From Escherichia coli (GTDB lineage: Bacteria > Pseudomonadota > Gammaproteobacteria > Enterobacterales > Enterobacteriaceae), in NCBI RefSeq assembly GCF_003019035.1, contig NZ_CP027447.1: DNA of 64,000 nucleotides; one strand, given 5' to 3'. The translations under genes were made by a program, and so were the position numbers. The notes below the pieces were generated by a model. The model was not told where the DNA came from and made no database searches. It saw only the letters and a list, made by a program, of their open reading frames with translations. The number at the start of each line of letters is the position of its first letter. Position 1 is the first letter of the stretch. Shown here in pieces: positions 1,544-12,782 of the stretch.

Positions 1544-4171
1544 TTATTCTTCTTCTGGCTCGTCGTCAACGTCCACTTCCGGAGCGATTTCATCGTCCCC
1601 TTCCGCGGCACTGCCGTCGATGGTATCCAGATCTTCCTCGTCAACCGGTTCAGCAACACGTTGCAGACCCACTACGTTTTCATCTTCCGCAGTACGGATG
1701 AGGATCACACCCTGGGTGTTACGGCCCACGATGCTGATTTCTGAAACGCGAGTACGTACCAGCGTACCGGCATCGGTGATCATCATGATCTGGTCGCAGT
1801 CATCTACCTGCACTGCGCCAACCACTAAACCGTTACGTTCGGTAACCTTGATGGAAATAACCCCTTTCGTCGCACGCGACTTGGTTGGGTATTCCGCCAC
1901 TGCGGTACGTTTACCATAACCGTTCTGCGTTGCGGTGAGGATTGCGCCATCACCACGAGGTACGATCAGAGAGACGACTTTATCGCCTTCGCCTAAACGA
2001 ATACCGCGAACACCGGTGGTGTTGCAGCCCATCGCACGGACAGAAGACTCTTTAAAGCGCACCACTTTACCTTCAGCGGAGAACAGCATTACTTCATCTT
2101 CGCCACTGGTCAGGTCAACGCCGATCAGCTCATCGCCTTCAACCAGTTTGATCGCCACTTTACCGGCAGTACGCAGACGGTTGAATTCGGTGAGGACGGT
2201 TTTCTTCACAGTTCCGTTAGCGGTCGCCATGAAGACTTTCACGCCTTCTTCAAACTCGGTCACTGGCAGGATCGCAGTGATACGTTCGTCTTGCTCCAGC
2301 GGCAGCAGGTTGACGATCGGACGACCGCGCGCGCCACGAGTAGCTTCTGGCAACTGGTAGACCTTCATCGAATAGACGCGACCACGGCTGGAGAAGCACA
2401 GAATATGGTCGTGGGTATTCGCCACCAGCAGTCGGTCGATAAAGTCTTCTTCTTTAATACGTGCGGCAGATTTACCTTTACCGCCACGACGCTGCGCTTC
2501 GTATTCAGAAAGCGGCTGATACTTCACGTAGCCCTGGTGAGAGAGCGTCACGACCACATCTTCCTGGGTGATCAGATCTTCCAGGTTGATGTCTGCGCTG
2601 TTGGCGGTGATTTCAGTACGACGTTTGTCACCGAACTGTTCACGAACCAGCTCCAGCTCTTCGCGGATCACTTCCATCAGACGATCGGCGCTACCAAGAA
2701 TACGCAACAGTTCCGCGATCTGATCCAGCAGCTCTTTGTATTCGTCGAGCAGTTTTTCGTGCTCAAGGCCGGTCAGTTTCTGCAGACGCAGATCCAGAAT
2801 CGCCTGAGCTTGCTGTTCGGTCAGGTAGTACAGACCATCGCGCACGCCGAACTCTGGCTCCAGCCATTCCGGACGCGCAGCATCGTCGCCAGCACGTTCC
2901 AGCATCGCGGCAACGTTGCCCAGCTGCCACGGATTAGCAACCAGCGCGGTTTTCGCTTCTGCAGGCGTCGGCGCATGACGGATCAGTTCGATGATCGGGT
3001 CAATGTTCGCCAGCGCCACGGCTAATGCTTCAAGGATATGAGCACGATCGCGAGCTTTACGCAGTTCGAAAATAGTACGACGGGTCACCACTTCACGGCG
3101 GTGACGAACAAACGCCGCGATGATGTCTTTCAGGTTCATGATCTTCGGCTGACCATGGTGCAATGCCACCATGTTAATACCGAAAGAAACCTGCAACTGG
3201 GTCTGGGAGTAGAGGTTGTTGAGCACCACTTCACCGACCGCATCGCGTTTCACTTCAATCACGATGCGCATACCGTCTTTGTCAGACTCGTCACGCAGCG
3301 CGCTGATACCTTCCACGCGTTTTTCTTTTACCAGTTCCGCAATCTTCTCGATCAGGCGCGCTTTGTTCACCTGATACGGAATTTCATGGACGATAATGGT
3401 TTCACGTCCGGTTTTGGCGTCAACTTCCACTTCAGCACGGGCGCGGATATATACCTTGCCGCGACCGGTACGGTAAGCTTCTTCAATACCGCGACGACCA
3501 TTAATGATTGCCGCCGTCGGGAAGTCCGGCCCAGGAATGTGTTCCATCAGCCCTTCAATGCTGATGTCTTCATCATCGATATACGCCAGACAACCGTTGA
3601 TAACTTCCGTCAGGTTGTGCGGCGGGATGTTGGTTGCCATACCTACGGCGATACCGGAGGAACCGTTCACCAGCAGGTTAGGAATTTTGGTTGGCATGAC
3701 GTCCGGAATTTTTTCCGTGCCGTCATAGTTATCAACGAAATCGACCGTCTCTTTTTCGAGATCGGCCATCAGTTCATGGGCAATTTTCGCCAGACGGATT
3801 TCCGTATAACGCATTGCCGCCGCAGAGTCGCCGTCGATGGAACCGAAGTTACCCTGACCGTCTACCAGCATGTAACGCAGCGAGAATGGCTGCGCCATAC
3901 GGACGATCGTGTCATAAACCGCCGAGTCACCATGGGGATGGTATTTACCGATTACGTCACCAACGACACGGGCAGATTTTTTATAGGCTTTGTTCCAGTC
4001 ATTGCCTAGTACGTTCATGGCGTAAAGTACGCGACGGTGTACCGGCTTCAGGCCATCTCGGACATCCGGCAGCGCACGGCCAACAATGACCGACATCGCA
4101 TAATCCAGATAGGAGCTCTTCAGCTCTTCCTCAATGTTGACCGGTGTAATTTCTCTCGCAAGGTCGCTCAT
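1544..4171 (-). CDS. gyrA: DNA gyrase subunit A
   Basis: 875-aa ORF with the canonical E. coli GyrA sequence ([47 protein letters not shown]; active-site region; acidic C-terminal tail). QRDR reads [11 protein letters not shown], i.e. Ser83 and Asp87. Confidence 0.97.
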
Positions 4172-4599: not shown

Positions 4600-5802
4600 T
4601 TATTTGATCACATAGGCAAGATATTGTTGTACGATTTCATCGTTTAATTCCTGACCAAGCCCAGGCAACTCTGGCGCGACATAATAGCCATTCTCGGGTT
4701 GATAATCGTAAGTACAAAGTTCCCGAATACATGCTTTCATCGCATTGGTATGATGTTCATGAATAATAAAGTTAGGTATTGCAGTTTCCATATGCAGCGC
4801 CGCTACTGTTGAAACAGGCCCGCCACAAACATGTACCTGAACGGTTGTGTCATATATATTGGCATAATCACAAATTTTCTTTCCCTCTGTAATGCCACCA
4901 CAAAGACACAAATCAGGTTGAGCTACCGCAATTGATTGTTTTTCCAGTAAATCACGATATCCCCAGCGAGTATAAGAACGCTCACCTGTTGCTATCGGAA
5001 TCGATGTTGAACGGGCAACTTTCTGCATATTATCCGAATTTAATGGATGAATTGGCTCCTCATAGAGAAAAATACGATATTTCTCTATTGCTTTGGCAAA
5101 CTGGATCGCTGAATTTGTTCCTAGAAGAGAATGAATCTCTACAATAATATCAGCATCGTCGCCCATTGCTTCACGCATAGCGGCAATTCTTGTCTCGCCC
5201 ATTTTTAATTGTTCGGCCAGTAATAAGCCAGAGTAATTTCTATTTTTGTTCTGAAAGACACAATCGCCGCCATGCAGATCGATTTCAAGCGGATCAACTT
5301 TTATCGCATTATAACCTTCTGCAATAGCGGCACGCGCTGCCTCTGCATACTCTTCAGGCGTTACTAATATTTGCCTTTTTTCGCCCCAACCAAATTGTAA
5401 CTGACTGGCGTAAGTTCTCAATTTATCGTTAGTCTTTCCCCCCAGTAGTTGATAAACCGGCACGTTTAAATATTTACCTTTAATATCCCATAAGGCAATA
5501 TCAATAGCGCTCATACCTGCGTAAAAAACATTACCACCGCCCATTCCCCAAAATGTTTTCCTGAAGAGGAATTCCCAAATCTTCTCAATGTTCAACGGAT
5601 CTTCACCAATGATGAGAGGGGCTAAATCTCTGATAATACCAACACCAGATTTTGCACCTGCGCCATAGGCTAATCCTACTTCGCCAACACCACTTATTCC
5701 AGCATCGGTATTAACCCGAATAAGTACTGGATTATAAGAGGCCATAGTTTGATCTCTTTTTTTGAGTTCGCAGTCAAAAATTTCTACAGATGTAATCTTC
5801 AT
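4600..5802 (-). CDS. Enolase-superfamily acid-sugar dehydratase (mandelate racemase/muconate lactonizing enzyme fold; D-galactonate/D-mannonate dehydratase-like)
   Basis: ORF 4600-5814; preferred start is the second ATG at 5802 (MKITSVEIF...), which has a GAGG Shine-Dalgarno 6 nt upstream. Motifs such as AIDIALWDIKGKYLNVPVYQLLGG and GERSYTRWGYRDLLEKQSIAVAQPDLCLCGGITEGKKI resemble DgoD/RspA/RhmD-type dehydratases. Substrate cannot be assigned. Confidence 0.8.
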   Translation of the reverse strand: MKITSVEIFDCELKKRDQTMASYNPVLIRVNTDAGISGVGEVGLAYGAGAKSGVGIIRDLAPLIIGEDPLNIEKIWEFLFRKTFWGMGGGNVFYAGMSAIDIALWDIKGKYLNVPVYQLLGGKTNDKLRTYASQLQFGWGEKRQILVTPEEYAEAARAAIAEGYNAIKVDPLEIDLHGGDCVFQNKNRNYSGLLLAEQLKMGETRIAAMREAMGDDADIIVEIHSLLGTNSAIQFAKAIEKYRIFLYEEPIHPLNSDNMQKVARSTSIPIATGERSYTRWGYRDLLEKQSIAVAQPDLCLCGGITEGKKICDYANIYDTTVQVHVCGGPVSTVAALHMETAIPNFIIHEHHTNAMKACIRELCTYDYQPENGYYVAPELPGLGQELNDEIVQQYLAYVIK

Positions 5803-5814
5803 AAATAACCTCAT

Positions 5815-7143
5815 TTATTTAGCATGTGAAATAACATTGTCTTTCTGGGCGTTATCTTTTTTATTATCAATTTTCATTGATAACAAAATAGCTACGGCGA
5901 TAAAGCAAAGAATCGCCTCAACAATAAATATCCCCGTGGCTCCATAATGTGTAGAAACATAGCCAAGTGATTTATTGATCAGAAAACCACCCAAACTTGA
6001 ACAAGAGTTAATAAACGCAATACTGATTGCCAGGCCTGATGGTGAAAGTAAAGCTGAGGGTAAAGCCCAGTACGGACCGTAATAACTGAGAATGCCTACA
6101 CCGTATAATGTTAATCCCATCATGCGCAGCGTCATCGAAGGTACAAGTGCGATCATTAAAAAACCGCAACCTGCAACCAACATCGGTAGTGCGGCATGCC
6201 ATTTCCTTTCATTCTTTTTATCGGAATGCCATCCCCATAATGGCATACTGAACATCGCGAAAATAAACGGAATACTCATAATCAAACCGACATCGGTATC
6301 TGTGAAATCCGATGAAAATCCTTTAACCAACCCCGGTAACCAGTAATTTGCCGCCAACGCCGCTGCCTGAATAAACATATAAGCAAATGAGAGTTGTAGT
6401 AATACTGGATTTTTAATGATTGACAGAAAAGATGCATTTGTATTTTTATTTAATGCTGCGGCTTTTTCGTTATCAGAATTAAGTTTATCGACCAATGCGG
6501 TGACTTGCGATGGTGTAAGCCAGCGGGCTTTTTCCGGACGATCTGGCAGTAAATAAAAGGTCAGCGCCCCCAATAACACCGTAGGAATGCCTTCAATAGC
6601 AAAAAGCCAGCGCCATCCTTCATAGTTACCGGTATTCATATGTTCAATAATCCAACCAGACATTGGTGCCGCCAGCACAGATGCAACTGCGATTGATAAC
6701 ATAAAAAAGCTATTCACTTTTCCACGTTCACGCGCCGGGAACCAACATGCCAGGTAGTAAACCATGCCAGGGAAAAAACCCGCTTCAAATATTCCCAAAA
6801 AGACCCGAGCGAGCAATATATGCTGGGTGTCTTTGGCAAAGAAAATTAACGTTGTTACTGTTCCCCAACCAACAATAATGGCGCTAATCCATTTTCTTGC
6901 ACCTAACTTTTGCAATCCAATACTGCTCGGAATTTGAAAAATCAAATAGGACACAAAAAATATTGAAGATATATTAGCAAAATCCTCTGGAGTAATACCA
7001 AGGGATTCATTCATGCGTAAAGCGGCAAATCCGATGTTAACACGATCCATATAGTTAAAAAAATACAGAATAAATGCTAACGGAATAATCTTCCTTTTCA
7101 CAATAGAAATGGCGTCATACAAATCTTTCTGAGGACTGCTCAT
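5815..7143 (-). CDS. MFS transporter, anion:cation symporter (ACS) family, putative sugar-acid permease
   Basis: 442-aa ORF with good SD (AAAGGTGA). Hydrophobic multi-helix protein with ACS signature regions ([33 protein letters not shown]) paralogous to RhmT in this window. Its stop abuts the dehydratase start. Confidence 0.85.
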   Translation of the reverse strand: MSSPQKDLYDAISIVKRKIIPLAFILYFFNYMDRVNIGFAALRMNESLGITPEDFANISSIFFVSYLIFQIPSSIGLQKLGARKWISAIIVGWGTVTTLIFFAKDTQHILLARVFLGIFEAGFFPGMVYYLACWFPARERGKVNSFFMLSIAVASVLAAPMSGWIIEHMNTGNYEGWRWLFAIEGIPTVLLGALTFYLLPDRPEKARWLTPSQVTALVDKLNSDNEKAAALNKNTNASFLSIIKNPVLLQLSFAYMFIQAAALAANYWLPGLVKGFSSDFTDTDVGLIMSIPFIFAMFSMPLWGWHSDKKNERKWHAALPMLVAGCGFLMIALVPSMTLRMMGLTLYGVGILSYYGPYWALPSALLSPSGLAISIAFINSCSSLGGFLINKSLGYVSTHYGATGIFIVEAILCFIAVAILLSMKIDNKKDNAQKDNVISHAK

Positions 7144-7233
7144 TTTGTTTCACCTTTTGTGCTTCAATGAATAAGAGTACTGCCCGAAGTGGATATTACG
7201 TAAAAAATAATCCAGTTCAAAAGGTGATGTGTT

Positions 7234-7249
7234 ATATCTGATATATCAG
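7234..7249. promoter_or_regulatory. Candidate operator 1 in the divergent MFS/GntR promoter region; contains the perfect 12-bp palindrome CTGATATATCAG
   Basis: atatctgatatat at 7234-7246, with the palindrome ctgatatatcag at 7238-7249. The same 13-mer recurs at 7304-7316. Located between divergent genes, one of which is a GntR regulator. Confidence 0.5.
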
Positions 7250-7303
7250 CTTGATCATTGATTGAAACACTAAGCTACAACAATAAGATATATCATTTTT
7301 GTC

Positions 7304-7316
7304 ATATCTGATATAT
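7304..7316. promoter_or_regulatory. Candidate operator 2 (second copy of ATATCTGATATAT)
   Basis: Exact 13-bp direct repeat of the 7234-7246 motif, 70 bp downstream and about 65 bp upstream of the GntR start codon. Confidence 0.45.
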
Positions 7317-7380
7317 TAGACACCTTCATTGATAAAATGATTACATATAATGGACCAGCAGCTTAATAAGGGGCAAAGGA

Positions 7381-8079
7381 ATGAGAGATAAAGCGAAACG
7401 TGACTTAAGTCACATATCAATTGAGATACCAAAATCCGTAACACAGGTCATCAAAGAAAAAATCAGGGATATGATAATTCATGGCGATCTCAGTCTTGGG
7501 CAACCGATAAGTGAAAATGAACTTTCGAATATCCTGGCGGTAAGTAAAACACCTATTCGTGAAGCTTTTATTTTACTTAGTCACAATGAAAATCTGATCA
7601 ATATCATTCCACGCAGCGGAACATTCGTTTTTTCCGTAACAGATAAAGATATTAATGACCTCATAAAAATGCGAGTAATTCTGGAGCAGGGTGCAATTCG
7701 TGAAGCAATGGAAAAGAATGAAAACAATGTCATCATTGAATTAAGTAGCATACTATCAAAATCAGCAAAAATTAATGCCGAGCGTGATACTCAGGCTTAT
7801 CTTAAATTGGATCATGATTTTCATTATGTGTTTGTTAAATACGCTGCTAATAAATACATCTCTCAGGCACACCAATTGATATCCGCACGTTTACTTGCTA
7901 TTCGTTATCGACTGGATTTCACTACGGAATATATTACCAATTCAAATCGTGGCCATGCCACTATTTTAGATATGCTAAAAAATAATAACGTTGAAGGTGT
8001 TTGTAATTTTATTACTCATCACGTAAGTAGTGGATTTACCGAGCGTGCACGAAAAATTCTCTCGTTATCTACACAGTAA
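7381..8079 (+). CDS. GntR-family (FadR/FCD-type) transcriptional regulator
   Basis: 232-aa ORF with an N-terminal winged-HTH pattern (LSLGQPISENELSNILAVSKTPIREAF) and a helical C-terminal ligand-binding-like domain. Divergent to the transporter-dehydratase pair; AGGGG SD 8 nt upstream. Confidence 0.8.
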   Translation: MRDKAKRDLSHISIEIPKSVTQVIKEKIRDMIIHGDLSLGQPISENELSNILAVSKTPIREAFILLSHNENLINIIPRSGTFVFSVTDKDINDLIKMRVILEQGAIREAMEKNENNVIIELSSILSKSAKINAERDTQAYLKLDHDFHYVFVKYAANKYISQAHQLISARLLAIRYRLDFTTEYITNSNRGHATILDMLKNNNVEGVCNFITHHVSSGFTERARKILSLSTQ

Positions 8080-8879: not shown

Positions 8880-8914
8880 GGTTGTTGTTTGGATTCAGCC
8901 GACGACCGAGCCAA

Positions 8915-8996
8915 GCCTGATGCGACGCTTGCCGCGTCTTATCAGGCCTACAAATGCTCCCGTAGGCCAGATAAGGCGTTTACGCCGCATCCGGCA
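8915..8996. repeat. REP/BIME element (two inverted REP units)
   Basis: gcctgatgcgacgcttgccgcgtcttatcaggcctac followed by the inverted unit gtaggccagataaggcgtttacgccgcatccggca, lying between convergent ubiG and yfaL. Confidence 0.8.
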
Positions 8997-9017
8997 ACAG
9001 TGCCGGTCAGACAGCGA

Positions 9018-12000
9018 TTACCATTTCACTGTCATCGACAAAAACCCTGCCGTCTGGGCAAAATCATCACTCCCTTTCTGCCACGCCACGCTACCACGCA
9101 GCGAAACTCGCTGACTGATATTGCCCGTTATTCCCACTTTTATTTCACCCCGTTGCTTCACCGCATCGTCACTGATAGTGCTGCCATCTTCTTCAATTTC
9201 CGTCGCATGGGGATCGTGATAATAATTCAGATCTAATGTTGGTATGACACCAACCGCGGTACGCCATTCGCTGTGTAAACCCAGCCGCGTTTGAATATCA
9301 TCACCCTGCGATTGTGACACCCGCGCATGGTTAGCAGCGGTGAAATCATCCTGCTGCACGCCCTGATAAATCACCTGCGCCTGTGGTTCAATCACCACTC
9401 CATGCCCCGGTAACCACTGATACCCGGCTTCCAGCGAGGCGATAATCCCCGATGAGTGGTAATGATCCGCGCCATCTTCATGTTCGGAAACATCATTGTT
9501 AAACCACGCGTATTGCAGCCAGCTATCCAGCCAGGCCCCCTGCTTCTGATTACCGTGCTGGAACCAGCTTGAGGTCAGACCAACGGCATAACCGTGGTTC
9601 TGGTTATCGGCGCGAGTTCCGGTCATATTCGAGCGGCTGTCGCCCTGGTTATCACTGTAGCCACCAACCGCCCCAAGCATCCACTCGCCATCCATGCCCC
9701 AGCGCCCGCTAAACAAGTCGCCGCTAAGCTGCACCGTAGAAGTGTCTTCATGCTGAGCCAGTTGCCCCGCTGCTGTGTAATGATAATCTCCGCCGATAAC
9801 ACGTAAATTCAGCGTCTGACCATCGCCACCAGCGTGATCGCGTCGCTCCATCACAAATGCCTGATTTGCCGCACGTAGGTTATTGAGATAGCCACCAACT
9901 TTGGCATTCAGCACCGGCTGGTAGGCAGGCGTAGGGGCTGGAGCCGGGTCGGGTGTTGGATCAGGATCCGGCGTAGGATCAGGATCTGGAGTCGGGTCTG
10001 GATCGGGCGGCGATGGTGGCGTTACTTCTTGCGATCGCAGATACCAGTCGTTGTTATCTTCCACCAGCGTGTAGTCATACGCTCCCATATTGACGTAGCC
10101 GCTGCCCGCCAGACTGAACTGCGCATTGTTTTGAAATTGCGTTGGATCGGCTGCGAAATCAACCACTTTAATGCCCGTAGATGTCGGCTCACCAATACCC
10201 GTAATGGGATTAATTACCACGGTCGTGTTGCCAGCAGTATTACCGTTCAACACCAGTTGGTCGCTTGCCGAGTCATCGCCGTTTAATTCGCTGTCGAGAA
10301 ACAACGTACCGCCACCGGTGTAATCACCGTTTACCGTGAGCGTGTCGCCAGCAACGCCATTTTGCAGACTGACAGCACCGGAAGTATTAGTTAGATCACC
10401 ATTGACCGTCACGTCTGAAAGATAAGTCAGGCTGTCAGTTTCAAGGTTGGTATTAAGCTCGCCTGTCAGCGTCACACCATCGGTGGCATTCACCAACGTA
10501 CCGTCGCCGCTAAACAGCGAGGCATCCAGCGCCTGGTTCGTATCCTGCTGCGTCAATCGCAACACAGTACCATCGGTTATGTCGATATCGCCGCCAGAGG
10601 TGGCATCGATTGAACGAATATCCTGATTTTGCCCGGTTTCAAAAACACCGTCTTCCCCCACCCACAGTGAAGAAACATAAGGAATAATATTCTCCGCTTC
10701 ACCTTTTAGCGTTCCGTCCTCCACACGTACCGCAGACGTCGCAGTGCCGCTGGCGGTCAACTCCAGCGTCCCGCCGCCACTTTTAGTCAACGTGCTTACG
10801 CTATCCAGTTGTTGCCCGGTACTATCCGCCATCAACCCGCCCCATTGCGTATCTACGCCATCCTCAACGTGTATTTCGCCATCAGCGCGCATTTCAATAT
10901 TCCTGCCCTGACCTGTTGTAGCCGAGCGAGTGTCAACATCAGTCGTCACATCCATTTCACTGTGTTGTTGGGGATCTGTGAAGATCACTGAACGGTTGTA
11001 ACTTGTGTCCCCCAATTGCGAATTATCGCTGACTTCAAGCGTACCGGAGGCGATTTGCGTATTACCGAGATAACCGTTGTTATTCGCCAGCGTTACGCGC
11101 TGATCCCCCGCATTAATGACGACATAAACGCCATTCTGGCTGGCATCACTGCCGCCAATATGTAAATCATCGCCACTGCTGATATCAACGACATCATTAC
11201 TACCAATCACTGTCCCCCCGCTGCCGCTGATTTGCAGACCGTCATTGTATGAGCTATCGCCATCCCAGGTGGTGAAATCAGAGAGATCCAATACTCCGCC
11301 ATTTAGCACGATCGATTGCGGATCGCTCTGCATTGCCCGTAAATCGGCCTGATTCCCCGCCAGCGACAATACGGCGTTATCTTCCACCACAATATCGCCG
11401 GTTAATGCCATCGACTGCGCCCCTGTCAGGAGATAGCTGCCATCTTGCGCTACCGTCAACTGTCCTTCACCCTGAATCGAGCCGGAAAAACCGCCCTGGT
11501 TTACGGTAACATTGCCGCCTGCGTCGATATTCAAAATGCCATTAGCAAAACCGGTTAATGAGTGCACAAACGTTTGTTGTGTATTGCCAACATTCAGTTC
11601 TGCCTGATACTCAGAATGAACAGTGCTGCCGACCATCAGACCAAAGCAATCCTGCGGATCGCTCTGACAGTGCGTGTCGCCGACATTCATTAACTCATCG
11701 CTGCGCCCCAACGTCACCTCGCCATTCTGGATACTCATCTCGCCGGTAAACGCATTATTGTCGGCATTGAGGACTAACTCTCCCGCTCCCTCTTTAACGA
11801 TGACTCCCGTTCCGGCAAGAGAATCAATCGCGCCATCGTTGCTGGTATTGCCTATTACCAGCGTTTTATCGGCGGCAATGTTAAATTCAGCCACACTATG
11901 ACCGATATACATAAAGCCCCCCGCCGCTGCCGTCGCCGAATGGTCATATCCCGAGGCGCTGTTATTTTCATCAATCATCACACCATTGTTTTGGTCATAA

Positions 12001-12782
12001 TTATCATCAACAGAAATATCAATAAGATACGGGGATGTGGTGCTGCTGGTATAAATTGCTCCGCCATAACCTTCTGCATAGTTATTGGTAAAGGAGGTAT
12101 TATTAATTATCGTTTTTCCTGAAAGATGTGTGTTATCCGTACTATTATCCGTAACATCAATGGCACCGCCGTCCCCATCACTATAGCTGGTTGATGTATA
12201 TGCCTGATTATTATCAAAAATGACATCACTTAAATAAATATCATTATTGATAGAATAAATAGCGCCACCTTTACCATCATTGGCGATATTATTCGCAAAT
12301 ATTGCATTAGTGATATTTAAATCCATATCACCGGCATCGTTTGTTCCCGCAGAATAGATTGCTCCGCCATAGCCTCCTGCAACGTTACTGTCGAAAATAA
12401 CATTCGCAAGATTTATCATTGAGTTTTCTTTAGCAAAGATAGCTCCGCCATTATTATATTCGCCACTAATCGAGTTATTAGCAAACAGGGTCATCCCTGT
12501 TTCATTTTGTGGTGATATCGTAAATTCAGCACTTTGCTGCAAAAATACGGCGCCACCGCTGGCATTATTGGCCATACCCGAAAAAATCACCCATTGCCCA
12601 TCGGCGATGCTCCAGTCCTGCGTAATGCCTGAAAGGCTTTGCCTGCTGGCCTGACAACTCGCTTTGATATCATATCCCTGGCATGAATCCAAAACCTCCG
12701 CGACACTGTTAACAGAGAAAAGAGATGCAATCATTGACGGGAGTAAAGATAAATACTCCTTGCGTAGAAAAATAATCCGCAT
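9018..12782 (-). CDS. yfaL: Autotransporter adhesin (AIDA-I type, YfaL/EhaC)
   Basis: 1254-aa ORF with signal peptide, a long Gly/Asn/Thr-rich beta-helix passenger domain, a Pro-rich linker (PPSPPDPDPTPDPDPTPDPDPTPDPAPAPTP) and a C-terminal beta-barrel translocator ending in W. Confidence 0.9.
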   Translation of the reverse strand: MRIIFLRKEYLSLLPSMIASLFSVNSVAEVLDSCQGYDIKASCQASRQSLSGITQDWSIADGQWVIFSGMANNASGGAVFLQQSAEFTISPQNETGMTLFANNSISGEYNNGGAIFAKENSMINLANVIFDSNVAGGYGGAIYSAGTNDAGDMDLNITNAIFANNIANDGKGGAIYSINNDIYLSDVIFDNNQAYTSTSYSDGDGGAIDVTDNSTDNTHLSGKTIINNTSFTNNYAEGYGGAIYTSSTTSPYLIDISVDDNYDQNNGVMIDENNSASGYDHSATAAAGGFMYIGHSVAEFNIAADKTLVIGNTSNDGAIDSLAGTGVIVKEGAGELVLNADNNAFTGEMSIQNGEVTLGRSDELMNVGDTHCQSDPQDCFGLMVGSTVHSEYQAELNVGNTQQTFVHSLTGFANGILNIDAGGNVTVNQGGFSGSIQGEGQLTVAQDGSYLLTGAQSMALTGDIVVEDNAVLSLAGNQADLRAMQSDPQSIVLNGGVLDLSDFTTWDGDSSYNDGLQISGSGGTVIGSNDVVDISSGDDLHIGGSDASQNGVYVVINAGDQRVTLANNNGYLGNTQIASGTLEVSDNSQLGDTSYNRSVIFTDPQQHSEMDVTTDVDTRSATTGQGRNIEMRADGEIHVEDGVDTQWGGLMADSTGQQLDSVSTLTKSGGGTLELTASGTATSAVRVEDGTLKGEAENIIPYVSSLWVGEDGVFETGQNQDIRSIDATSGGDIDITDGTVLRLTQQDTNQALDASLFSGDGTLVNATDGVTLTGELNTNLETDSLTYLSDVTVNGDLTNTSGAVSLQNGVAGDTLTVNGDYTGGGTLFLDSELNGDDSASDQLVLNGNTAGNTTVVINPITGIGEPTSTGIKVVDFAADPTQFQNNAQFSLAGSGYVNMGAYDYTLVEDNNDWYLRSQEVTPPSPPDPDPTPDPDPTPDPDPTPDPAPAPTPAYQPVLNAKVGGYLNNLRAANQAFVMERRDHAGGDGQTLNLRVIGGDYHYTAAGQLAQHEDTSTVQLSGDLFSGRWGMDGEWMLGAVGGYSDNQGDSRSNMTGTRADNQNHGYAVGLTSSWFQHGNQKQGAWLDSWLQYAWFNNDVSEHEDGADHYHSSGIIASLEAGYQWLPGHGVVIEPQAQVIYQGVQQDDFTAANHARVSQSQGDDIQTRLGLHSEWRTAVGVIPTLDLNYYHDPHATEIEEDGSTISDDAVKQRGEIKVGITGNISQRVSLRGSVAWQKGSDDFAQTAGFLSMTVKW
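9933..10015. repeat. Short tandem repeat inside yfaL encoding the (PDPDPT)n linker
   Basis: Repeating ggatcaggatc / ggatctggagtcgggtctggatc units on the plus strand, corresponding to the PDPDPTPDPDPTPDPDPTPDP linker on the coding strand. Confidence 0.6.

Follow-up and report, generated by a model that had tools for sequence, protein, structure and literature searches.

Pertactin is a textbook case of proline-rich repeats that vary in copy number, and alternating Pro-X tracts, such as the Glu-Pro/Lys-Pro region of TonB and the Ala-Pro hinge of OmpA, act as extended, stiffish connectors between envelope domains. For the adhesin TibA, Cote and Mourez reportedly found in 2011 that adhesion is impaired on deletion of the proline-rich region. 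In that protein, an additional proline-rich domain (residues 627-677) separates the junction region from the membrane-embedded C-terminal domain (PMC3835316). Among Bordetella pertactin alleles, the copy number of Pro-rich repeats varies (PMC8931430).

We examined a Pro-rich coding repeat in the Escherichia coli autotransporter YfaL, overexpression of which is cited in PMC7251025 as enhancing biofilm in K-12 (Roux et al. 2005). The repeat lies in a 64-kb stretch of DNA that was analyzed as a whole, hereafter the window. Like YfaL, TibA is an AIDA-I-type monomeric autotransporter adhesin with a Pro-rich domain at the matching position, but the sequences differ, the domain measures ~50 aa in TibA against 31 aa in YfaL, and TibA is glycosylated and self-associating. 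The R1 (GGXXP)n and R2 (PQP)n tracts of pertactin are also in-frame, Pro-rich repeats of an autotransporter passenger, with a copy number that changes slowly from allele to allele and from species to species; their units differ from those of YfaL, however, and in PMC8931430 they are loops or part of the passenger C-terminus rather than the segment from autochaperone to pore helix. Pertactin variation is tied to vaccine-era epidemiology, a link with no known counterpart in YfaL. AIDA-I and IcsA share with YfaL an autochaperone ending in WYL(T/R)S and the helix-in-barrel arrangement, but AIDA-I passes from WYLTS to the helix in ~10 residues with no Pro-X repeat, whereas YfaL takes ~41, of which 31 form the Pro-rich tract. 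The TonB and OmpA spacers are periplasmic and belong to proteins unrelated to YfaL, and the likeness concerns a possible mode of action, not family. Our analysis makes it highly probable that the yfaL tract is an in-frame coding repeat serving as a Pro-rich inter-domain spacer, with rare slippage-driven length polymorphism and no phase switch.

Identity and domain layout of YfaL

The gene in the window is yfaL/ehaC. It was identified as such because it scores 2746 bits (cut-off 1459) against the NCBIfam equivalog NF007285, with aa 1-1254 aligned to profile positions 1-1250, and because it lies in the expected gene order, nrdA-ypaB-yfaL-ubiG, as annotated in the 100% identical region of E. coli SCU-301. 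The gene itself is likewise 100% identical to yfaL of SCU-301, and yfaL was found in 5425 of 5426 complete E. coli genomes. The coordinates of the gene, its modules, and the repeat units are collected in Table 1.

Table 1. Features of yfaL and its Pro-rich linker, in window coordinates.
Feature	Position	Strand	Basis
yfaL/ehaC CDS, AIDA-I-type monomeric autotransporter adhesin, 1254 aa + stop	9018..12782	-	ORF list, translation, NF007285
Autochaperone (junction) domain, aa 796-906	10065..10397	-	Pfam PF18883 AC_1, E=4.8e-18
WYLRS codons, aa 913-917, last autochaperone strand, upstream anchor of the linker	10032..10046	-	sequence
Whole Pro-rich linker, aa 922-952, PPSPPDPDPTPDPDPTPDPDPTPDPAPAPTP	9927..10019	-	computed coordinates
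Three 18-bp PDPDPT units, CCCGATCCAGACCCGACT / CCAGATCCTGATCCTACG / CCGGATCCTGATCCAACA, aa 926-943	9954..10007	-	sequence; TRF
GATCCTGATCC copy 1, in unit 2	9976..9986	-	plus-strand letters GGATCAGGATC
GATCCTGATCC copy 2, in unit 3	9958..9968	-	sequence
Alpha-helical segment, aa 960-974, predicted inside the barrel pore, downstream anchor of the linker	9861..9905	-	AlphaFold model helix 170-184
Twelve-strand outer-membrane beta-barrel, aa 990-1253	9024..9815	-	Pfam PF03797, E=5e-33; model strands 200-463; 4MEE match

The AIDA-I-type domain layout of YfaL was apparent from the two Pfam domains (PF03797 and PF18883), an AlphaFold model, and matches to the structures 4MEE and 3ML3. The model covered aa 791-1254 (mean pLDDT 92.9); in it, strands ending at aa 921 are followed by coil (aa 922-952), a helix (aa 960-974), and 12 strands. 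The autochaperone beta-strands run on in the model to aa 921, beyond the Pfam boundary at aa 906. The solved structures closest to the modules flanking the linker were the AIDA-I transport unit (4MEE; TM 0.91, rmsd 2.0 A) and the IcsA autochaperone (3ML3; TM 0.68). An earlier note on this DNA had described the repeat as encoding a linker between passenger and translocator domains, and the tract does fall between AC_1 (aa 796-906) and the beta-domain, for which PF03797 spans aa 993-1232. In the model, the linker joins the last autochaperone strand (aa 918-921) to the helix that plugs the 12-strand barrel. DSSP assigned coil to the linker (model residues 132-162), which is without secondary structure; its pLDDT is 70-84, with no clear disorder signature. 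In the YfaL of the window, Pro accounts for 46% of the 37 residues between WYLR and YQP. Within the WYLRS anchor, W and L were invariant and Y was conserved in at least 90% of a 61-sequence alignment, and the motif is also present in related representatives.

A comparison with relatives used the 150 best representatives at 50% identity, 126 of which were parsed. For the segment from WYL to the alpha-linker motif, the median was 37.5 aa in length (range 5-112) and 29% in Pro content, and Pro reached at least 25% in 92 of the 126. Judged by these sequences, a Pro-rich linker of variable length is widespread at this position in related autotransporters. Its position, composition, and family-wide conservation suggest that the YfaL linker is most likely a spacer or stalk: ~31 acidic, Pro-rich, non-globular residues that would extend from the surface and hold the passenger off the barrel mouth. 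The presence of a linker is conserved, with its exact sequence and length under loose constraint only. We found no functional data on the YfaL linker in the searchable literature.

The repeat tract

A tandem repeat at 9933-10015 encoding a (PDPDPT)n linker had been proposed for YfaL from the sequence. It is present, and that span covers the 9927..10019 tract well. Its minus-strand translation is TPPSPPDPDPT PDPDPT PDPDPT PDPAPAPTPAYQP. The periodicity is one of 6-bp Pro-X dipeptide units within an 18-bp PDPDPT super-period. Tandem Repeats Finder (TRF) reported an array at 9958..10009 (period 18, 2.9 copies, 79% matches, score 62), the sole array scoring at least 50 across the 64-kb window. Mononucleotide shuffling of the window, repeated 100 times, produced only 3 arrays scoring at least 62, corresponding to ~0.03 expected per window.

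As protein, the three PDPDPT units form a perfect repeat; as DNA, the repeat is moderate. The units agree with one another at 13/18, 13/18, and 15/18 bases (72-83%), every mismatch falling at a third codon position. Calling the DNA units near-identical, as the earlier note did, was thus an overstatement, and the high inter-unit identity that signals recent amplification or homogenization was not seen. The longest exact repeat is the 11-bp GATCCTGATCC, which occurs in two copies 18 bp apart and is a likely direct-repeat substrate for slippage. An overlapping gene at the tract was considered and rejected: on both strands, no other ORF of at least 30 aa covers it.

Linker length among E. coli strains

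Linker length was measured from WYLRS (TGGTATCTGCGATC) to YQP (TAYCAGCCG). Lengths of 30, 34, 36, 38, 39, 40, 42, 44, and 48 aa were found in E. coli, giving at least nine classes. An invariant repeat number across diverse strains had been named in advance as the outcome that would speak against length change; the observed range of 30-48 aa is the opposite. Two samples of 60 genomes each, drawn at even spacing from 5419, put the 42-aa class at ~67%, the 36-aa class at ~21%, the 44-aa class at ~7%, and the 34-aa class at ~2-3%; two synthetic queries complemented this sampling. Equal lengths had been reached by different routes, since at least three sequences fall in the 44-aa class, and the 34-aa and 36-aa classes hold two apiece.

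The common length classes accompany divergent allele groups. Divergence between these groups is 5-11% over the 480 bp flanking the linker on each side, far above what is typical of E. coli core genes. As the main classes track divergent allele lineages, part of the variation between strains represents old alleles and intragenic recombination, not fresh slippage. Alleles L003, L004, and L005 differ by 1-3% in their flanks, yet have three linker lengths. The C-terminal 551 bp, which include the linker, are ~93% identical to K-12, against 82% for the whole gene.

Two protein searches accompanied the genome comparison. A word-indexed search with the C-terminal 464 aa returned mainly draft-assembly fragments, notably from Shigella sonnei, along with five distant homologues and a small number of additional linker variants. 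Four full-length YfaL proteins had no exact match in a collection of 15 billion proteins, probably owing to other start-codon choices by gene callers.

Slippage events and their rarity

Several alleles carry length changes at the level of the repeat unit. Strain CFS3246 has an exact tandem duplication of the 18-bp GATCCTGATCCCACGCCG, WP2-S18-ESBL-08 has gained GATCCT (+6 bp), and UMNF18 together with five porcine ETEC strains has lost GATCCT (-6 bp); in all three cases, the flanks are 1/780 bases off K-12. Two further alleles, P0005 and L008, encode proteins that are 98.8% identical and exactly one hexapeptide apart. A larger change was seen in VTB97022v, an in-frame 168-bp deletion bounded by the two copies of an 11-bp direct repeat, TGATCCCACGC, with one copy inside unit 2. 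Comparison of the alleles demonstrates these events. Direct repeats as short as GATCCN, recurring at 6-bp steps, and GATCCTGATCC, at 18-bp steps, misalign now and then in replication. Such misalignment leads to in-frame gain or loss of 6, 18, or 24 bp, and at times to larger microhomology deletions.

Against these events stands the constancy of the tract within lineages. The linker span was identical in 37 of 37 genomes of the window's lineage, and 1921 genomes were at least 99% identical to the K-12 sequence over a 414-bp segment, an identity at which no indel can be present in those K-12-like genomes. Each of the 22 alleles examined kept the reading frame and carried the annotation of an intact CDS. 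Orthologous units were 16.5/18 identical across alleles, compared with 13.5/18 for paralogous units; the units therefore keep separate identities, and there is no concerted evolution. Length change by slippage or recombination between strains, as the earlier note had supposed, is borne out by the 18-bp duplication and the 6-bp gains and losses, with the refinement that it is not frequent. Changes in linker length are rare, lineage-level events, and the linker is a slowly evolving polymorphism, with most lineages fixed at one length.

Discussion

A tandem repeat in a surface-adhesin gene, with a copy number that depends on the strain, invites comparison with the repeats of Neisseria or Haemophilus surface proteins, in which case yfaL would be a contingency locus whose expression is toggled by frequent slippage. 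We regard phase variation as effectively refuted, and a role of this kind as extremely improbable. Units of 6 or 18 bp cannot shift the frame, and the tract is not a phase switch because all variants are in frame, every fetched allele being intact. The longest perfect repeat is only 11 bp, in units of 72-83% identity, and the stability of the 37 window-lineage and 1921 K-12-like genomes, none of which had changed length, does not agree with frequent slippage. No more credible is a role for the DNA itself, with the protein repeat secondary to a cluster of GATC sites acting in SeqA/Dam-dependent regulation. Five GATC sites (Dam methylation) do lie in the 93-bp tract, and GATC density in the window peaks at 6 sites in 93 bp, in a cluster beginning at 9959. 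The cluster arises because Asp-Pro codons are GAT-CCN, however, and we rejected it as a functional element in favor of a by-product of those codons: synonymous GAC-CCN is found freely in the tract and among alleles, distant homologues keep a Pro-rich peptide with PEP, PVP, and PQP and so do not require GATC, and the tract lies 2.8 kb into the CDS, far from the promoter.

Two further readings concern how length differences arise and why they might be kept. Homologous recombination among old yfaL alleles could account for strain differences in place of repeat slippage, a proposal that draws on the flank divergence between allele groups, on the association of common length classes with particular groups, and on the published mosaic evolution of yfaL (PMC12175518). 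Recombination shuffles existing variants but does not generate indels, though, and three exact repeat-unit duplications or deletions sit in flanks that are 1/780 off K-12, while L003, L004, and L005 have three lengths in flanks only 1-3% apart. As a substitute for slippage, allelic replacement is thus quite unlikely; it complements that explanation instead of replacing it. Adaptive antigenic variation, in which host antibodies hit the exposed linker and selection favors new lengths, as proposed for pertactin R1/R2, also seems quite unlikely to us. The copy-number differences among pertactin alleles (PMC8931430), reports of positive selection and mosaic evolution in yfaL (PMC9110714, PMC12175518), and the convergence of different routes on the 44-, 34-, and 36-aa lengths speak for it. 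The reported hypervariable regions of YfaL, however, are all in the N-terminal half (PMC12175518), and the C-terminal 551 bp bearing the linker are far more conserved than the whole gene. Moreover, one class dominates, and recent variants are confined to rare singletons or small clones. The reading that we favor remains that of a Pro-rich spacer altered by rare, in-frame slippage.

The yfaL linker repeat is real but ordinary, and belongs to known biology: the gene, its domain layout, and proline-rich linkers in this class of autotransporters were already established. What is added here is a catalogue of at least nine YfaL linker length classes, a few clearly recent products of slippage, and stability within lineages otherwise; literature searches found no published description of YfaL linker polymorphism. 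The 30-48 aa classes would give a stalk span of roughly 90-150 A if fully extended. We consider it a quite improbable idea that linker length is a tuned trait, the Pro-X stalk setting passenger height to match the O-antigen or capsule layer of the strain. Were it true, repeat slippage would slowly adjust the height of an adhesin that surface polysaccharide otherwise masks.

Many partial S. sonnei proteins end at the linker, which raised the suspicion of an IS insertion there. No evidence for an insertion was found: the one longer scaffold examined shows a 250-N assembly gap across the region, and the partial proteins look like an assembly artifact. Short-read assemblies can break at the tract, so apparent yfaL truncations at this site call for caution. 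For strain comparison, the tract is poor for fine typing, and PCR sizing can separate allele groups. From the natural range, YfaL surface-display constructs could probably accept linkers of 30-48 aa.

Identification of yfaL and its repeat tract

The product of the gene carrying the repeat matched the NCBIfam YfaL/EhaC equivalog end to end (2746 bits, cut-off 1459), with Pfam autochaperone (aa 796-906) and autotransporter beta-domains (aa 993-1232). YfaL is classed as a Group 8 autotransporter adhesin, alongside MisL, ShdA, EhaA, and IcsA (PMC9289746). A 100% identical gene is present in E. coli SCU-301, next to nrdA, ypaB, and ubiG, and yfaL was found in 5425 of 5426 complete E. coli genomes. 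Compared by sequence identity, its alleles are unusually divergent within the species. The window gene shares only ~82% DNA identity with the K-12-type allele of most genomes, and 4178 of the 5425 genomes fall in the 80-90% identity band, with only 37 at ≥99%. The C-terminal 551 bp, at ~93% identity to the K-12-type allele, are far more conserved than the whole gene, which concentrates the divergence in the passenger. The pattern fits the mosaic evolution already published for YfaL (PMC12175518), for which positive selection and hypervariable regions in the N-terminal half have also been reported (PMC12175518, PMC9110714).

Positions 9933-10015, where the earlier note had placed a tandem repeat coding for (PDPDPT)n, read on the coding strand as ...WYLRSQEVT-PPSPP-DPDPT-PDPDPT-PDPDPT-PDPAPAPT-PAYQPV..., and the repeat is indeed present there. 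Tandem Repeats Finder returned it as the sole array with a score ≥50 across the 64-kb window, with weaker 6- and 12-bp periodicities also in the tract. As only three arrays in 100 shuffled windows reached a score ≥62 (~0.03 expected per window), the repeat is real and beyond chance. No other ORF of ≥30 aa was found over the tract. In the protein the repeat is exact; in the DNA it is only moderate: the three 18-bp units share 13, 13, and 15 of 18 bases pairwise, all differences lie at third codon positions, and the longest exact repeat is 11 bp. Describing the DNA units as near-identical was therefore too strong.

Features of yfaL and its repeat tract
Feature	Position	Strand	Source
yfaL ORF, 3765 bp, 1254 aa	9018..12782	minus	ORF list and translation
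Whole proline-rich tract, aa 922-952	9927..10019	minus	Translation
Exact (PDPDPT)x3, aa 926-943	9954..10007	minus	Translation
Tandem array, period 18, 2.9 copies, 79% matches, score 62	9958..10009		Tandem Repeats Finder
11-mer GATCCTGATCC, longest exact repeat, two copies	9976..9986 and 9958..9968

Position of the linker and its conservation across relatives

Residues 791-1254 were aligned with 60 relatives of 30-40% identity, and their structure was predicted (mean pLDDT 92.9, pTM 0.88). In the model, autochaperone beta-strands run to aa 921, the WYLR strand being the last, and a segment without secondary structure (aa 922-952, pLDDT 70-84) coincides exactly with the proline-rich tract. A short strand, a helix (aa 960-974), and a barrel of twelve long strands follow. 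Barrel and helix superpose on the AIDA-I transport unit 4MEE (TM 0.91, rmsd 2.0 Å), as does the N-terminal part on the IcsA autochaperone 3ML3. The tract had been described as a linker between passenger and translocator, which is correct; more precisely, in the model it joins the autochaperone to the pore helix. Whereas WYLTS of AIDA-I is joined to the helix by only ~10 residues, the YfaL tract is longer, and is thus an expanded form of this connector.

With E≤0.001 as the threshold, HMMER identified 3548 relatives in a full scan of 1.84 billion representatives. The segment from the WYL motif to the alpha-linker motif ([YVL]RPExG.Y) could be parsed in 126 of the 150 best. These segments had a median length of 37.5 aa (range 5-112) and a median proline content of 29%, with 92 of 126 at ≥25%. 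PDP occurred in 48 segments and PEP in 53; examples from individual relatives include PDPEPTPDPDPTPDPEPTPDPDPT... (P0078), PEPVPPP repeats (P0128), and PQPQP repeats (P0121). Across the subfamily, a proline-rich connector is consistently present, with length and sequence drifting freely, which would mark it as a spacer and not as a site for specific binding.

Linker length among E. coli strains

Length was counted from WYLRS to YQP inclusive. Copy number was not invariant: as the earlier note proposed, it varies between strains, with linkers of 30-48 aa among E. coli alleles and a longer one still in an Escherichia sp. protein (P0001). In two evenly spaced samples of 60, drawn from 5419 matching genomes, 42 aa accounted for ~67%, 36 aa for ~21%, 44 aa for ~7%, and 34 aa for ~2-3%, the others being rare.

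Linker lengths by strain, nucleotide locus (L), or protein (P)
Length (aa)	Carriers	Remark
48	CFS3246
44	the window; L004/L015, L009/L013, L012, L021	≥3 different sequences
42	K-12 and most strains
40	UMNF18 and porcine ETEC
39	ws5-3
38	L023
36	L008; UTME-3	UTME-3 independently
34	L005/L007/L014; L024	L024 with a different sequence
30	P0005-P0008, P0018

Origin and rarity of the length changes

Querying the genomes with synthetic K-12 sequences bearing four or two units identified natural length variants. In CFS3246, WP2-S18-ESBL-08, and UMNF18, the 780 bp of flanking sequence match K-12 at all but one base, and the tract has respectively gained 18 bp (an exact tandem duplication of GATCCTGATCCCACGCCG), gained 6 bp (a duplicated GATCCT), and lost 6 bp (GATCCT). 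UTME-3 has lost 18 bp, and the 98.8% identical proteins of P0005 and locus L008 differ by exactly one hexapeptide. In VTB97022v (L016, NZ_CP178670.1), whose yfaL is otherwise identical to K-12, a 168-bp (56-codon) in-frame deletion at the equivalent of ~9980..10150 removes the autochaperone end (QFQNN...WYLRS) and the start of the linker; it is bounded by two 11-bp direct repeats TGATCCCACGC, in the autochaperone FAADPT-Q codons and in unit 2. These duplications and deletions are classic products of short-direct-repeat misalignment. The unit-sized gains and losses in near-K-12 flanks bear out the proposal that slippage alters linker length between strains, with the correction that such changes are rare. 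The same span was found in 37/37 genomes that match the window at ≥99% identity across 9700..10250, and 1921 genomes match the K-12 414-bp segment at ≥99% identity, a threshold incompatible with a 6-bp indel. Across six distinct three-unit alleles, the same unit is 16.5/18 identical between alleles and different units only 13.5/18; the three units therefore predate the allele split, without homogenization.

The common length classes go with allele groups whose flanks diverge by 5-11%, and linkers of 42, 44, and 34 aa occur together in one group of close relatives whose flanks diverge by only 1-3%. Two processes therefore act together: recombination redistributes old alleles, and now and then a new slippage event occurs.

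Several incomplete records were also observed. P0009, a 445-aa YfaL fragment from a metagenome contig, is without the entire linker and WYLRS strand (…GAYDYT|PAYQP…), which could be a real short-repeat deletion or an assembly artifact. Among partial YfaL proteins from S. sonnei drafts (P0024-P0110), dozens stop in or beside the linker, and some have NPNP for DPDP; in scaffold CWTN01000164.1 (L018), a 250-N gap (1913..2162) spans the linker region. Rather than real truncation, poor short-read coverage or faulty assembly at the tract seems the likely cause, and the scaffold gave no evidence of an IS insertion.

Alternative readings and known counterparts

A phase-variation switch was ruled out by the 6- and 18-bp units and by the alleles examined, all in frame and annotated intact. 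A DNA-level regulatory element is unlikely. GATC (Dam) sites are packed more densely here than anywhere else in the window (9959..10048, 6 in 93 bp against an average of 4.5 per kb), but this clustering follows directly from the GAT-CCN (Asp-Pro) codons; GAC variants occur freely in the tract, and distant relatives keep the peptide character using other residues. A BamHI site (GGATCC) is likewise present. We consider it very improbable that linker length is tuned to match the height of surface polysaccharides.

The tract is an ordinary feature, and known biology already accounts for it. TibA, of the same protein class, has in the same position "an additional proline-rich domain" (residues 627-677), located between the junction region and the membrane domain (PMC3835316). 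In Bordetella pertactin, alleles differ in the copy number of the proline-rich repeat regions R1 and R2, which changes slowly over time, and a stalk of polyproline type has been suggested for R2 (PMC8931430). We found no description of YfaL linker length polymorphism in the literature; it is an unsurprising case of a known phenomenon.

Two further observations concern the surroundings of yfaL. A probably spurious TTG-start ORF of 115 aa (8889..9236, plus strand), which the identical SCU-301 record does not annotate, overlaps its 3′ end antisense. Between ubiG and gyrA, ~4600..8079 holds three extra genes, coding for an MFS transporter, a mandelate racemase/muconate lactonizing family enzyme, and a GntR-family regulator whose gene carries a frameshift annotation in SCU-301, the identical strain. 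The segment is apparently a small, variable island adjoining yfaL; in the S. sonnei scaffold, gyrA directly follows ubiG.
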